From NCBI GenBank assembly GCA_035946795.1, contig DASYYX010000064.1, positions 221,462 to 285,461 of the forward strand: a stretch of 64,000 bases of DNA. The letters are read 5' to 3'. Below are positions 1,684-13,914 of the stretch, piece after piece (the first letter of the stretch is position 1; every line of letters starts with the position of its first letter). Under the pieces are notes generated by a model that was given only the letters and a program-made list of their open reading frames with translations, was not told the origin of the DNA and did not search any database. The DNA is from Caulobacteraceae bacterium (GTDB lineage Bacteria > Pseudomonadota > Alphaproteobacteria > Caulobacterales > Caulobacteraceae). Position numbers and translations under genes: made by a program.

Positions 1684-1923
1684 CTAGGCCGCGGATTCCG
1701 ATAGTGCGCTTGGGCGTTCCAAGGGCTCGGCGGCCTGCTGCGAGAACCTGATCCGGGCCGACCTTACGGAAGCGCAGCGGGCGCAGCCTGCCCCAAGATG
1801 GACGAAACCGAGCCGCCGACCATGATCGCGGCACACGGCCTGGCCGGCCTCATGGTATACGCTATCGCCTTCGTCACGCCAGGGCGCGGTCGCCGGCCTA
1901 CGGGCTGCTGCGTCACCCCTCAC
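1684..1923 (-). pseudogene. Possible remnant of a Zn-metallopeptidase-like gene with a degenerate HEXXH motif (HEAGQ)
   Basis: A 79-codon ORF starts at a GTG that overlaps the stop of the 1920-2333 gene (GTGA). It contains SVYHEAGQAV, resembling the xxHEAGHAV motif of M41/ImmA-like peptidases, but the second His is replaced and the ORF is far too short. Downstream DNA has no clean ORF. Confidence 0.3.
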
Positions 1924-2333
1924 GTCGCGAGCGCGTCCTCGCCAGCCGCGGCGAGCGGCGGCGACCGTACCAGGCTACCGCCGACGCCCAGGCTCTCGAC
2001 CGTCGCGCCGGCGGCGCCCTCGAGGTAGGCGGTCACGCCCGCGAACAGGCGCTCGGCCCCCCGCCATGAGCGCCACGGCTCGTCTTCGCCTTCCTCTGCC
2101 GTCTGGAACAGGCGCGTGCGCGCCCTCTGGAGCATGAACGCGGCTCCCAGGGGCGAGGTCGGGGTGACGAATTCGAGCGCCTGGGCGAGGTGGTGTTCGC
2201 GGTCGAACAAAAAGCACGCGTCACTTGGATCGTTCGCCTCGAGCTCGCGGATCCGGCTCGCCAGCTCTGCGAGCTTGCGGGCGATCGCCAAGGCCGGGCA
2301 GCCCTGAGCGTCGGCGGATGATGTGTTGGCCAT
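1920..2333 (-). CDS. Hypothetical protein (137 aa), divergent partner of the XRE gene
   Basis: The ORF has GC-rich third positions. It is divergent from the HTH gene at 2499 across a 165-bp gap, a cI/cro-like layout. I recognise no family. Confidence 0.5.
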   Translation of the reverse strand: MANTSSADAQGCPALAIARKLAELASRIRELEANDPSDACFLFDREHHLAQALEFVTPTSPLGAAFMLQRARTRLFQTAEEGEDEPWRSWRGAERLFAGVTAYLEGAAGATVESLGVGGSLVRSPPLAAAGEDALAT

Positions 2334-2498
2334 CGTTTCGTCCTTCGTTCCGACCGGCGAGCCCGGCCGGGTTGGCGGAAGGGATTCCGCTTCGCCGCTT
2401 CCGTCAAGCCAAATGGCACAAGCGTTCCGGTGGACCGTGGATCAGGTCCGAATTATTAGGTCGCCGACACGGACGAATCACGGCATCGCTGGCCGGCG

Positions 2499-2765
2499 AT
2501 GGCGAGGGTCTCCAGGAACCGATTGACACCCGAGTCGCTGCGGGCCGCTCGGGCGCTGCTCGAGCTCAGCTGCTCGAGCCTGGCGCGGGCCGCCGGCGTG
2601 TCGGCAAGCTCGATCTCGAGGATCGAACGCGGCCATCTTCCCCGGCCAGGAACGGCGGCCAAGCTCACGCGGTTCTTCGGCTCGCGGGGCGTCGAGCTGA
2701 TCGCCGGGCGAGCCCGAGCGGGAGCAACCATCGCCCTGGTGATCGAGGATCGCGATGGCCGTTAG
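2499..2765 (+). CDS. XRE-family HTH transcriptional regulator (88 aa)
   Basis: LRAARALLELSCSSLARAAGVSASSISRIERGH is a canonical XRE HTH. The small size is typical of a phage repressor or Cro-like protein. Confidence 0.75.
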   Translation: MARVSRNRLTPESLRAARALLELSCSSLARAAGVSASSISRIERGHLPRPGTAAKLTRFFGSRGVELIAGRARAGATIALVIEDRDGR

Positions 2766-3065
2766 AACGACGGATCAATCGGCTCGGGCGCAACCTACCG
2801 GTCAAGCCGGACAATGTTGCGAAGGTTCGCTTCGCCCTCGAAGGCGGCCGGCGCGACCGGAGCGTTTATCCGCAGGGGTCAAGGGATGATGATCGTCCCT
2901 TCGAGCGCGCGGGTCCCACCTTGGGGCCGAATATCGCTTGGGTGGGTGGCCCGGCGGCGGACAGGTCAGATCGTTCTGGGCGCCGCGCCGCCCGGTTGGG
3001 AAGCGCTGCGCAACCCCATCTGTTCCGGCGGCTTCGATCTATTCGTCAGGCTTGAGCATCCGGCG

Positions 3066-3815
3066 ATGCCCTTGCCGTCGCCAGCGCCTGAATCCCCAGA
3101 CGACGTGATCGCCTACAGGCTTCCGAACGGCCAGATTGCGGTCTGGTGGCGAGGCGGGACGTACGTTGGTCCTCTGGCCACCGGCGATGCGAGGCTCGAA
3201 GAGCCCGACATCCCTTCCGAGTGGGCGGCGCTGCTGCGAGCTGCAGATCGGGGCGAAGATCTCAAATCGCGGGGCATCCATGTCCGGCCCGATAAAACCG
3301 GGCCTAGGTTCTCTGGCGAATCTGGCGCGGCGCTCCCGGCGGCCGCGGAGCTGTATCGCAAGGTGATTGACGCTCGGGCCGCGGCCTGTGCGGCTCTAAG
3401 AGGCGAGGTCGACGAACCCGAGCTCAGCCCTCGGATGCACAACTGGGAGGTGGCCAGAATCCACCTAGCCCAGGCGCTAGAAGTCGAAGCGGCCGGCGCG
3501 GCGTCCCGGCGGGCCGCGCTAGGCAGGGGGTCAGCCGCCGCTGCAGGCCGCCGGACGCGCGCCAAGGAGGATCGGTATAGATCAGTCTGCAGAATCGTCG
3601 ACAAGTGGGATCCCGAGAAACAGGGCGAGCCAACTCGCGCGGCGATCCGCGAAGCTTTCAATCAACAAGCCCAGATAATGGGGATAAGCAACATCACCGA
3701 CCCCGGGATCGTCGGCGCGGCGATCAGATGGGCCCTTGAGCGCAAAGAGGGCAGGCGGCCGATCACTCAAGAGCGGCTGGATCAGCTCGGTATTCGGACT
3801 CCTAGCGACAAATAG
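3066..3815 (+). CDS. Hypothetical island protein (249 aa from ATG 3066; the ORF is open from 2814)
   Basis: A long ORF with coding-like composition. The N-terminal 84 codons of the 2814 version look non-coding (R/G/P-rich), so ATG 3066 is preferred. I recognise no family. Confidence 0.5.
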   Translation: MPLPSPAPESPDDVIAYRLPNGQIAVWWRGGTYVGPLATGDARLEEPDIPSEWAALLRAADRGEDLKSRGIHVRPDKTGPRFSGESGAALPAAAELYRKVIDARAAACAALRGEVDEPELSPRMHNWEVARIHLAQALEVEAAGAASRRAALGRGSAAAAGRRTRAKEDRYRSVCRIVDKWDPEKQGEPTRAAIREAFNQQAQIMGISNITDPGIVGAAIRWALERKEGRRPITQERLDQLGIRTPSDK

Positions 3816-3864
3816 CCGGTGCACCGGCCGGTGCGACCGGTATACCCCTCAGCCGAAACAGCTG

Positions 3865-12517: not shown

Positions 12518-12520
12518 GGC

Positions 12521-12733
12521 GTGCGCACCGTCGGCCGCAGGACGCTCGAAAATGTCATCCGCGCCATGGAGGCCTGCGGACAACCGTTCACCGCCGCCAA
12601 GGTGTCACCTGACGGAACGGTGACCCTCTTGACCACGGACTCGAAGGCGCCGATTCTGCAAGGAAGCAACGACGACGACGATTGGGTGAACCTTGCCGGC
12701 CAGACGGAGATACATCGTGCCCCGCGGGCTTAA
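12521..12733 (+). CDS. Hypothetical small protein (70 aa, GTG start)
   Basis: The ORF starts 4 nt after the previous stop and overlaps the integrase start by 17 nt. Confidence 0.45.
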   Translation: MRTVGRRTLENVIRAMEACGQPFTAAKVSPDGTVTLLTTDSKAPILQGSNDDDDWVNLAGQTEIHRAPRA

Positions 12734-13790
12734 GCCGGTCCGACGCCGCCTCGCAGGGGGCGAGGTCAAGCTCTACTGGTATCACCGCGCCACCGGACGG
12801 GCGCTGAAGGCCGATCCGGTAACCGCAGAGGGCTTCGCCGAGATCGCCGCGTTGGACGAACGCGCCAAGGTCGGGTCGGCCCTGGGCGCGATCCTGGAAG
12901 GCTCCTACGCCCAGCTTTGGGAGAAGTATCGCGCCGGTCCGGAATGGCGCGCGCTCAAGCCACGCACGCGATCCGACTACCAGGCCGTGCGCGATTGGCT
13001 CGGCGAGGCGGCGAAGCTGCCGATCGCAAGGTTGACGTCGGCCAAGGTTTGGGGCCTGCGCGATAAGGCGGCGGCCGCCAAGGGGCGCCGGTTCGGCAAT
13101 TATGTCGTCCAGGTCCTGCGCCTGACGCTCGAGTGGGGCCGCCGGCGCGGCCTCTGCGCAGACAACCCGGCCCGAGCCGTCAAGACAATGCGCAAGCCCG
13201 CCAACGCCCCGGACGTGAACCGCGCCTGGTCGGCTACCGAGCTCGAGGCCTTTGCTGCCGACGCGCCGGCCCAGCTGCTCGTTCCTTTCGCCCTGGGCCT
13301 GTTCGCCGGCATGCGCCAGGGTGATGCGCTCGCCGTCACTTGGTCGGCTTATGATGGCGCGGCGCTGCGCTGGCGGGCTTCGAAGAATGGCGAAGCCTGC
13401 GTCGCCCCGGTGACTGGCATTTTCAAAACCATCCTCGATGCGGCGAAGGGCGCTCGGCCGCCGGCGGTGCAGATCGCCACAACCAGTCGCGGCGACCCAT
13501 GGAGCCAATCCGGCTTCCGGGCATCGTTCTTCAAACGCCTCCGGAACCTTCGCGACGGCGGCCAGGTGGAGCGGGGGTGCACCTTCCACGGCCTGCGTCA
13601 CACGATCGCCAGCATGGCCAGGGATGGCTCGGAATCGGAATTCCGGATCGCCGCGGCAATCGGCGATCGATCTACCGCAATGGCCGCGACCTATGGCCGC
13701 GACGCCGATCGCGCCGCCGCTCAAAACTCTGTCCTCGAGGGCGTCCAGAAACGATTCGCGAACGCCGATTGGAAAACGGGGGCGGCCTGA
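12717..13790 (+). CDS. int: Tyrosine-type site-specific integrase (phage integrase family)
   Basis: The C-terminal catalytic region carries GMRQGDAL (Arg I), HGLRHTIAS (H-x-x-R) and AATYGRD (catalytic Tyr). The gene ends 48 bp from a tRNA 3' end. GTG 12717 is preferred; the ORF is open from 12693. Confidence 0.9.
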   Translation: MPRGLKPVRRRLAGGEVKLYWYHRATGRALKADPVTAEGFAEIAALDERAKVGSALGAILEGSYAQLWEKYRAGPEWRALKPRTRSDYQAVRDWLGEAAKLPIARLTSAKVWGLRDKAAAAKGRRFGNYVVQVLRLTLEWGRRRGLCADNPARAVKTMRKPANAPDVNRAWSATELEAFAADAPAQLLVPFALGLFAGMRQGDALAVTWSAYDGAALRWRASKNGEACVAPVTGIFKTILDAAKGARPPAVQIATTSRGDPWSQSGFRASFFKRLRNLRDGGQVERGCTFHGLRHTIASMARDGSESEFRIAAAIGDRSTAMAATYGRDADRAAAQNSVLEGVQKRFANADWKTGAA

Positions 13791-13800
13791 TTGGAAAACG
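13767..13800 (+). repeat. 12-bp direct repeat GATTGGAAAACG x2 (13767-13778, 13789-13800) with inverted GGGGGCGG / CCGCCCCC; possible integrase/att arm sites
   Basis: Read directly from the sequence. The repeats straddle the integrase stop codon, between int and the tRNA-Phe 3' end. Confidence 0.5.
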
Positions 13801-13838
13801 CTTCCGCCCCCGGTTCCCGCTAAGCCTTTGAAAAGCCC

Positions 13839-13914
13839 TGGTGCCTGGGGGCGGAATCGAACCACCGACACGCGGATTTTCAGTCCGCTGCTCTACCAAC
13901 TGAGCTACCCAGGC
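13839..13914 (-). tRNA. tRNA-Phe (anticodon GAA), CCA encoded
   Basis: The minus strand reads GCCTGGGTAGCTCAGTTGGTAGAGCAGCGGACTGAAAATCCGCGTGTCGGTGGTTCGATTCCGCCCCCAGGCACCA. The acceptor, D, anticodon (loop CTGAAAA) and T arms all pair. Confidence 0.95.

Follow-up and report, generated by a model that had tools for sequence, protein, structure and literature searches.

The 64,000-nucleotide stretch of Caulobacteraceae DNA analyzed here (assembly GCA_035946795.1, contig DASYYX010000064.1, positions 221,462 to 285,461; hereafter the window) carries near its left end an island, integrated at a tRNA-Phe gene, that is probably a helper-dependent phage satellite. As far as gene content can tell, the island resembles a phage-inducible chromosomal island (PICI) in how it would be packaged, and the satellites known as PICI-like elements (PLEs) and EPIPs in bringing its own tail tape-measure protein (TMP). 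By homology, exactly two of its genes belong to phage morphogenesis, a small terminase (TerS) of the Nu1-position type and a complete TMP/lysozyme. A satellite had already been proposed in a first-pass annotation of the window, made from the letters and their open reading frames (ORFs), and this reading is now favored by the orphan TerS, the intact orphan TMP, iterons of a family type, matching attachment (att) sites and backbone relatives of the capsid-forming PICI (cfPICI) type.

The TerS gene (11575-12225, plus strand, 216 aa) matches phrog_57 (E-value 1.7e-17), and its homology to phage TerS proteins bears out its initial description as Nu1-like. The protein has both the N-terminal helix-turn-helix (HTH) and the conserved C-terminal block of the phage homologues. 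Relatives are rare, with only four among 5.8 billion proteins, two of which could be placed on contigs. The island protein is 37-46% identical to the products of phage TerS genes that are directly followed by a GpA-type large terminase (TerL) gene (loci L083 and L084); in a Breoghania prophage and on a 10-kb phage contig, the TerS relative is followed by a GpA-type TerL, a Phage_portal_2 portal and capsid genes. A profile built from four TerS sequences recovered 11 metagenome and 30 IMG/VR loci, some of them duplicates, while a six-sequence alignment was too divergent for scanning and single-protein scans of IMG/VR with TerS and with the TMP returned nothing. A GpA-type TerL lies directly downstream of the TerS relative in 40 of these 41 loci, the remaining contig ending too early; its start is found ~10-110 nt downstream of TerS for full-length matches, and a sheath gene follows ~8.6 kb downstream in several loci. 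Searching the 64-kb window by tblastn with the related phage proteins revealed no TerL, and the island gene is, on this comparative evidence, a genuine Nu1-position small terminase standing alone. A distance tree, weak on account of its long branches, places the TerS of the window and that of a sister island (L029, described below) outside the phage cluster, the nearest neighbor of the latter being the former.

The TMP gene (6219-7790, plus strand) encodes 523 aa with a C-terminal tail lysozyme domain (Phage_lysozyme2, 2.5e-25; phrog_9570, 1e-47; phrog_2276, 4e-22). The tape-measure/lysozyme protein noticed at first sight is full length: it aligns end to end, from residue 1, with three phage relatives, at 44-46% identity to P0127 and 37% to P0135 and P0136. 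No full-length relative was found in a cultured phage. Each relative has a tail assembly chaperone gene on one side and DNA_circ_N on the other. On contigs that extend far enough, genes for the tail tube and sheath precede them, and homologues of gp44, gp45, gp46, baseplate J and gp48 follow downstream; judged by these genes, the modules are Mu-like contractile tails. In locus L085 such a tail is joined to a head consisting of GpA TerL, gpW, portal_2, S49 protease, HDPD and Phage_cap_E, which is the head type of the phages bearing TerS relatives. Since L085 combines this tail with that head, the TerS and the TMP of the island both trace to one phage type.

Other particle and lysis genes were sought in several ways. 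Capsid, portal, TerL, tail tube, sheath and holin gave no match in Pfam, PHROGs or NCBIfam. All proteins of two TerS-relative phages, all proteins of three TMP-relative tail modules, and the capsid modules of the related loci L132 and L133 served as three sets of tblastn queries on the window and its left extension, and matched TerS and the TMP only; the absence of these gene classes, noted at the outset, thus holds in both hidden Markov model (HMM) searches and tblastn. The proteins of the three tail modules likewise revealed no remnant of the chaperone or DNA_circ genes beside the island TMP. Apart from the TMP, the helicase and the integrase, all three assigned, no ORF exceeds 350 aa, and a hidden TerL or typical portal is excluded because no unassigned ORF is large enough. 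Two capsid-sized ORFs were modeled with AlphaFold2 from single sequences, at low confidence (pLDDT 55-58). The model of 3066-3815 (pLDDT 58) has a small beta region plus helices and found no meaningful match among viral models in Foldseek, a weak negative, and that of 4368-5297 (pLDDT 55) consists of helices at residues 11-70, 76-124 and 127-159.

These results also bear on the explanation that the first-pass annotation set against its own proposal, namely a decayed prophage remnant. In a concrete form of it, deletions would have stripped the head, tail and lysis genes from a lambda-head/Mu-tail prophage and spared the integrase, the replication genes, TerS and the TMP. The closest relatives of TerS and the TMP do lie in that phage type, the island helicase is devoid of its N-terminal domain and Toprim DxD, and a 1.45-kb stretch has no clear gene, all of which would suit such a history. 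However, TerL, portal, capsid, tail and lysis genes of an intact or recently decayed prophage were unmatched, as were pseudogene remnants of TerL, portal, capsid, chaperone or DNA_circ. TerS and the TMP are intact and spliced precisely into an overlapping gene string, and the order TMP, helicase, TerS, integrase is unreachable from the phage order by deletions alone. The related phages replicate via DnaG-type/DUF5906 proteins, not DUF927, the 26 nt that can be compared between the two att copies show no difference, and L029 has the same gene categories, compactly arranged. Given the lack of remnants, the intact embedded phage genes, and an order and replication module unlike those of the donor phage type, we consider decay an unlikely origin of the island.

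The island is a predicted integrative element of 16,539 bp that sits in the 3' half of tRNA-Phe. This is longer than the 13.8 kb initially assumed, with four more genes left of the window. The extent comes from a Logan contig of 16,550 bp that is 100% identical to window positions 1-13868 and continues on the left for another 2,682 bp. The 26 nt with which this contig begins, CGAACCACCGACACGCGGATTTTCAG, are the same as window positions 13858-13883, within the tRNA, and hence define a repeat period of 16,539 bp. The target, tRNA-Phe(GAA) (13839-13914, minus strand; ARAGORN; Rfam tRNA, 71 bits), is intact, and it was the only Rfam match. An attL inside the window was rejected, no copy of 11 nt or more of the tRNA-Phe 3' half being present there; the longer public contig supplied the left copy instead, 2.68 kb beyond the left edge of the window, and the direct repeat of the tRNA-Phe 3' end that had been anticipated is thereby located. 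Both copies are identical across the visible 26 nt. Within the attR core (13839-13883), positions 13858-13883 are verified against the left end, whereas we infer the stretch back to 13839: the contig stops 30 nt into the putative repeat, which would fit a k=31 assembly breaking at a repeat that begins at 13839. The predicted attP junction would read integrase end, 13839-13883 core, then ACGGCGAGTGTGCC.

The tyrosine integrase (12717-13790, plus strand, 357 aa) matches phrog_1 (3e-24) and, under the Pfam cutoff, Phage_integrase (8e-04). Its stop codon lies 48 nt from the tRNA-Phe 3' end, just as first described and now supported by ARAGORN and the phrog_1 match, and it is 77% identical to the integrase of L029, which likewise adjoins tRNA-Phe. 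Beside it, a 70-aa protein (12521-12733, plus strand) is 44% identical (E 3e-16) to the product of the gene directly upstream of the L029 integrase, and is a candidate recombination directionality factor.

The replication module centers on a DUF927 superfamily-3-type helicase and likely replication initiator (8538-10706, plus strand, 722 aa; Pfam DUF927, 7e-49; phrog_1139, 8e-54), whose closest relatives, at 44-49% identity, are for the most part proteins of Caulobacterales and Sphingomonadales. Its early description as a Toprim/DUF927 primase-helicase stands for the helicase, but the Toprim part is degenerate and the N-terminal domain absent. In alignment A1 the protein is without ~110 N-terminal residues (the PF19898 region); the Toprim D-x-D, kept in 20/20 aligned relatives, reads S66-A-R68, and the TWPGGS block is missing as well (residues 1-71, encoded at 8538-8750). 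Walker A and B motifs are retained, and no convincing remnant of the lost N-terminal primase domain was seen upstream of 8538. The residues kept and lost suggest that primase chemistry has probably gone while the helicase/initiator function has probably been kept.

The replication origin (10705-10817, plus strand) follows the helicase and comprises four TTCCCACC iterons at 10760-10817, three of them in tandem at 10793-10817, together with a possible inverted copy at 10705-10713; the whole 64 kb holds one other copy of TTCCCACC. The consensus, GTTCCCAC(C), and the triple-tandem layout recur after the helicase stop codon in nine related Caulobacterales-type islands, where the iterons read GGTTCCCA(G/C) or GTTCCCACC. 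More broadly, 32 of 79 related loci have an 8-mer that is present three or more times in the 250 nt past the helicase stop, as against 5.5% of random background windows. The octamers first noticed here are therefore real origin iterons, and the shared consensus and layout indicate that the origin is homologous across the DUF927 family.

With its helicase, iterons within 250 nt and a nearby recombinase, the island fits a class of DUF927 integrative islands, some of which carry particle genes. L133 (IMG/VR, 4467-18418) adds to the backbone a portal, a protease-major capsid protein (MCP) fusion, a connector, an HNH protein, a Terminase_4 TerS and a TerL, and L048 (a genome locus, 1926-8420) adds a portal, protease-MCP, HNH, Terminase_4 TerS and TerL; both sets are, as annotated, cfPICI-like. 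L132, a 14.8-kb IMG/VR contig (1406-13952), combines the backbone with a protease/MCP and a 939-aa TMP, and a TMP-lysozyme is present in L003, whose helicase is the closest of those from genome loci. The nearest counterpart is L029, a sister tRNA-Phe island in a Caulobacterales metagenome-assembled genome (55-14595) with the 77% identical integrase, the 70-aa partner and GGTTCCCA iterons. In addition, L029 has a phrog_57 TerS that stands alone, a TMP exceeding 830 aa and an excisionase/regulator-like protein matching phrog_66; no attL was found within its 14.5 kb, the left end lying beyond the fetched locus. Sequence conservation of the gene set as a whole is poor, with only the XRE regulator among 21 island proteins recurring widely (14 loci), such that the expectation of a conserved compact gene set held for the backbone and failed for the remainder. 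The suggestion of an undescribed satellite family is reasonable as regards the pairing of TerS with a TMP; the backbone itself belongs to a widespread PICI/cfPICI-like group.

Most of the 80 related DUF927 loci have no recognizable phage structural gene within 10 kb, which lends some weight to a second alternative: a non-packaged, autonomous DUF927 integrative element in which the TerS-like and TMP-lysozyme genes are captured cargo, serving defense by packaging or tail interference, or cell-wall hydrolysis. The defense- and toxin-antitoxin-flavored genes at the left end (TIGR04255, PDC-M32A-like, DUF4258/HTH) are in keeping with such a role, and tail-assembly interference is a known defense strategy (PMC11364771, PMC12987554). 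Yet this TerS keeps its HTH and C-terminal block, the TMP is full length, and both derive from one phage type, while the same backbone bears full capsid-forming modules elsewhere, so the class includes satellite-like elements. We regard the non-packaged element as doubtful, though with a real minority share of the probability, and return to the satellite reading.

As to a packaging site, the phages with TerS relatives offer a comparison. In these phages (L083, L093-L126) the region between about -160 and -10 relative to the TerS start has a conserved architecture: a C-rich run, AGGGACCGT at about -130, CAGTCTGA, and then CTAAAG-type repeats, four or five in number, that extend to the TerS start codon. 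The arrangement resembles a cosN/cosB region for this GpA-terminase phage group. The window contains a single copy of AGGGACCGT, at 10705, just before the TTCCCACC array. The array with this AGGGACCGT copy was considered as a cosB-like TerS site and rejected, the nhmmer match being insignificant (E 1.9) and the 9-mer reading equally well as an inverted iteron; the homology of the array to the origin iterons of related helicase islands further undercuts the idea.

The remaining genes complete the picture of a compact element. A gene string was derived from codon-position GC, ORF analysis and an independent gene call on the identical public contig. All its genes, from 2523 to 13790, are on the plus strand, and 10 of 15 junctions overlap by 1 to 28 nt; the tight coupling first reported for 3865-13790 is thus real, and the co-oriented string begins even earlier. 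The first gene of this rightward string, in Cro-like position, encodes an XRE-family HTH regulator (2523-2765, plus strand; HTH_3, 1e-09). Divergent from it, as had been observed, is a gene for a 137-aa protein (1920-2333, minus strand; GC at third codon positions (GC3) 0.86) with no Pfam, PHROG or PADLOC match. XRE homologues lie ~2.5 kb upstream of the DUF927 gene in the 14 related loci mentioned above, and one is also present in L132.

Between the regulator and the integrase, all on the plus strand, are several ORFans. These lie at 2886-3815 (309 aa, or 249 aa if the start is at 3066; no family match), 3865-4371 (168 aa, from the gene call, with an ATGA overlap with the next gene; no family match) and 4368-5297 (309 aa, with predicted long, coiled-coil-like helices; no family or PDB match). 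An uncertain, possible ORF of 158 aa at 5294-5770, skipped by the gene caller, has GTGA and TAATG overlaps, and the 158-aa ORFan at 5770-6246 overlaps the TMP start by 28 nt. The 7814-8506 ORFan (230 aa, or 201 aa from a later start in another annotation; no family match) holds three AxxI(V/I)xAGxKARGE-like (AxxIIxAGxKARGE-like) repeats. Further ORFans, all without a family match, follow at 10857-11135 (92 aa, from the gene call), 11132-11578 (148 aa, GC3 0.81) and 12218-12517 (99 aa, from the gene call). The unassigned ORFs had no match in Pfam, PHROGs, NCBIfam or PADLOC, and PDB sequence searches with three ORFans found nothing. Those at 3066-6246, which the first-pass annotation put forward as candidates for hijacking the helper capsid or its regulation, thus stay without a family. 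It is speculative that the 5770-6246 ORFan occupies the position of a tail assembly chaperone; it showed no similarity to the chaperones of the related phages, and a HMMER search of 1.84 billion representative proteins returned only the query itself. A promoter and terminator scan gave results at chance level.

The left end appears to hold accessory cargo. A 133-aa, MqsA/antitoxin-like HTH protein of accessory or regulatory type is encoded at 68-469 on the minus strand (HTH_3, 2.5e-05; phrog_5119, 1e-22). The four genes in the island portion left of the window (L001 10424-12918) encode a TIGR04255-family protein (3e-14), a 157-aa protein matching the C-terminus of the PADLOC candidate defense protein PDC-M32A (1e-10), a 149-aa ORFan and, directly left of the window and beside the 68-469 gene, a 154-aa protein with a weak DUF4258 match. 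The DUF4258-like/HTH pair resembles, in its domains, a toxin-antitoxin module, and the TIGR04255 and 157-aa genes are also paired beside a DUF927 gene in L028 (Novosphingobium aquimarinum). The gene-poor 1.45-kb stretch at 470-1919 has a lower GC content (0.63-0.65), no convincing coding signal, no consistent codon-position GC signal and no match to phage DNA. It contains three copies of the 16-nt sequence AAACTGAGACACTRCC (at 526, 671 and 695), two of which fall within a 28-nt repeat, GGCSGGAAATTCAAACTGAGACACTRCC (514-541 and 659-686), just upstream of the divergent HTH gene at 68-469. The stretch might serve as operators or as a packaging site, or it might be degraded. The three AAACTGAGACACTRCC repeats (526-715) were considered as TerS R sites and set aside, no comparable arrangement being found to link with them.

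The least likely account of the island, with very little probability in our view, would make it a tandem composite of two unrelated elements at tRNA-Phe, consisting of a left cargo island and a right replicon with 469-1919 as their degraded junction. The lower GC and missing coding signal at 1-1900, and the TIGR04255/157-aa pair adjoining another DUF927 island in L028, point in this direction, but the interior holds no stretch of the tRNA-Phe core as long as 11 nt and the island has one integrase only, and accessory genes at the integrase-distal end are normal for satellites (PMC10085698). Beyond the island, the flanking chromosome (window 14000-64000) holds housekeeping genes, among them glyQ/glyS, ppdK, amtB, ETF-QO, mfd and recG, with tRNA-Arg, -Pro and -Glu at 58-61 kb of the window. 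The GlyQ, PpdK, AmtB and ETF-QO proteins of the host are all singletons at 90% identity among ~15 billion proteins, and the host lineage is therefore without close sequenced relatives.

Taken as a helper-dependent satellite, the island suggests a model of its life cycle. Induction of, or infection by, a helper phage would release the XRE-type switch, and the integrase would excise the island, perhaps aided by its conserved 70-aa partner. The helicase would fire the iteron origin, and because the Toprim site is lost, priming would be left to the host. The island TerS would then bind an island packaging site and recruit the GpA-type large terminase of the helper, while the island TMP would be built into helper contractile tails to form chimeric tails, as shown for the Vibrio PLEs. 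As helper we predict a temperate myophage that combines a Mu-like tail with a lambda-like head (GpA TerL, portal_2, S49 protease and gpE-type capsid). Genomes of this type measure 41-66 kb, about three times the island. The more specific proposition, that the window island and L029 represent a distinct alphaproteobacterial satellite lineage hijacking both the GpA terminase and the contractile tails of lambda-head/Mu-tail myophages, is tentative, and we would sooner bet against it than for it; in that scheme an ORFan might play the part of Rta and inhibit the TMP of the helper.

Several observations weigh against a satellite. There is no helper prophage within the 64-kb window and no pac or cos site was identified, the sole lead, AGGGACCGT at 10705, not being significant. 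The TMP breaks the PICI rule that forbids tail genes (PMC10085698). The missing N-terminal domain and Toprim DxD of the replication protein could be early decay, and degradation could likewise explain the gene-poor 1.45 kb. Some ten ORFs are ORFans, one of them without a relative among 1.84 billion proteins, and L029, the only other element with the TerS and TMP pair, differs in gene order.

Most of the phage satellites that have been characterized by experiment are from Enterobacterales, Firmicutes and Vibrio, and current detection rules discard any candidate bearing a tail gene. The present data suggest that high-GC Alphaproteobacteria may hold satellites with a DUF927 backbone and exchangeable modules, whether capsid-forming, TerS-only, TMP-bearing or combinations of these. 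The island would provide a second independent context for satellites that supply their own TMP, with a concrete helper type named, and an orphan Nu1-type TerS plus an orphan TMP beside a DUF927 helicase with iterons is a signature that can be mined for. If the dual-hijack lineage is real, satellite TMPs and chimeric tails reach well past the Vibrio PLEs, and elements of this sort are systematically missed by SatelliteFinder-type rules, which bar tail genes.

Among known satellites, the PICIs offer the closest match in packaging. SatelliteFinder describes a PICI by five components, namely integrase, regulator, primase-replicase, small terminase and, optionally, a gene for capsid morphogenesis, and its PICI models forbid tail and holin genes (PMC10085698). 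Applying rules of this type, as the first-pass annotation had in mind, gives a divided result: by function the island has 4/5 of the components, and its TMP is a forbidden one, while no holin was found. The integrase (phrog_1, 3e-24) adjoins attR. The XRE HTH_3 regulator with its divergent partner is a functional analogue of alpA/merR/stl, no AlpA/HTH_17-type regulator being detected. DUF927 is counted among satellite primase families (PMC10111431), and the island pairs it with the homologous iteron origin, its Toprim motif lost. The small terminase comes without a TerL. For the optional capsid-morphogenesis gene, common in Proteobacteria, no Pfam/PHROG match was found among the unassigned ORFs. 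Similar to PICIs of the type found as Staphylococcus aureus pathogenicity islands (SaPIs), the element is a chromosomal island of ~15 kb with att repeats, an integrase, a repressor-type switch, a helicase with iterons and TerS without TerL, its size being about one-third of that of the predicted helper genome. It departs from PICIs in having a TMP, in having no recognizable capsid-morphogenesis gene and in its XRE rather than AlpA/Stl/MerR regulator. Its integrase comes last in a single co-oriented string, not at the element head, the host is a high-GC alphaproteobacterium, and its TerS belongs to the type found at the lambda Nu1 position, which in phages is paired with a TerL of the GpA (cos) type.

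The cfPICI-like DUF927 elements of Alphaproteobacteria share a homologous DUF927 protein (~39% identity in L132 and L133, ~35% in L048), and L132 and L133 also share the XRE regulator and the tyrosine integrase type, L132 in addition a TMP. The island is without the portal, protease-MCP, connector, HNH and TerL of L133/L048 or the MCP of L132, and its TerS is of a different family; as a cfPICI of its own it would need capsid, portal, protease, connector/adaptor, HNH and TerL genes, all unmatched by HMM and tblastn. P4 is similar in its tRNA integration, its single multidomain replication protein followed by iterons and, in the proposed scheme, its dependence on a helper myophage for structural genes. 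Of the P4-like set (psu-delta-sid, epsilon, alpA and alpha), the island has only a distant replication-protein analogue: sid, psu, delta and epsilon have no homologues on it, the relationship between DUF927 and P4 alpha is distant, the Toprim of the island is degenerate, and P4 is itself without TerS or TMP. A size precedent exists in a 16.8-kb Pseudomonas satellite that is packaged as trimers (PMC4936722).

The TMP finds its parallels elsewhere. The chimeric tails of PLEs incorporate TMPs, chaperones and a baseplate hub of the satellite's own, and putative tmp genes also occur in PLE-like elements and cfPICIs (PMC12987554). The island resembles the Vibrio cholerae PLEs, such as PLE11, in its own TMP, which in the PLE goes selectively into chimeric contractile tails made with helper parts (PMC12987554). 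The PLEs, however, add a tail assembly chaperone and a baseplate hub and parasitize the lytic phage ICP1, and neither those genes nor the PLE11-specific Rta are recognizable on the island. The TMP of the island is 37-46% identical to phage TMPs, compared with ~20% between the PLE11 TMP and that of ICP1. Set against the PLE gene list (PMC10085698), the island has a tyrosine recombinase as integrase and DUF927 for replication, the TMP being the only shared feature and unrelated in sequence. EPIPs of Mycolicibacterium bear a TerS and a TMP together in a small helper-dependent element (PMC12822802, preprint), a pairing of genes that the island shares. Unlike the island, EPIPs have an MCP, a scaffold, a head-to-tail adaptor and stopper and a serine integrase, and were isolated as particles (PMC12822802). 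Satellite-encoded TMPs are thus already described (2025-2026), and the ban on tail genes in PICI models has recently been overtaken (PMC12987554, PMC12822802). By analogy with these systems, the island would in function come nearest to a PICI that bears a TerS and, in the manner of PLEs or EPIPs, a TMP.

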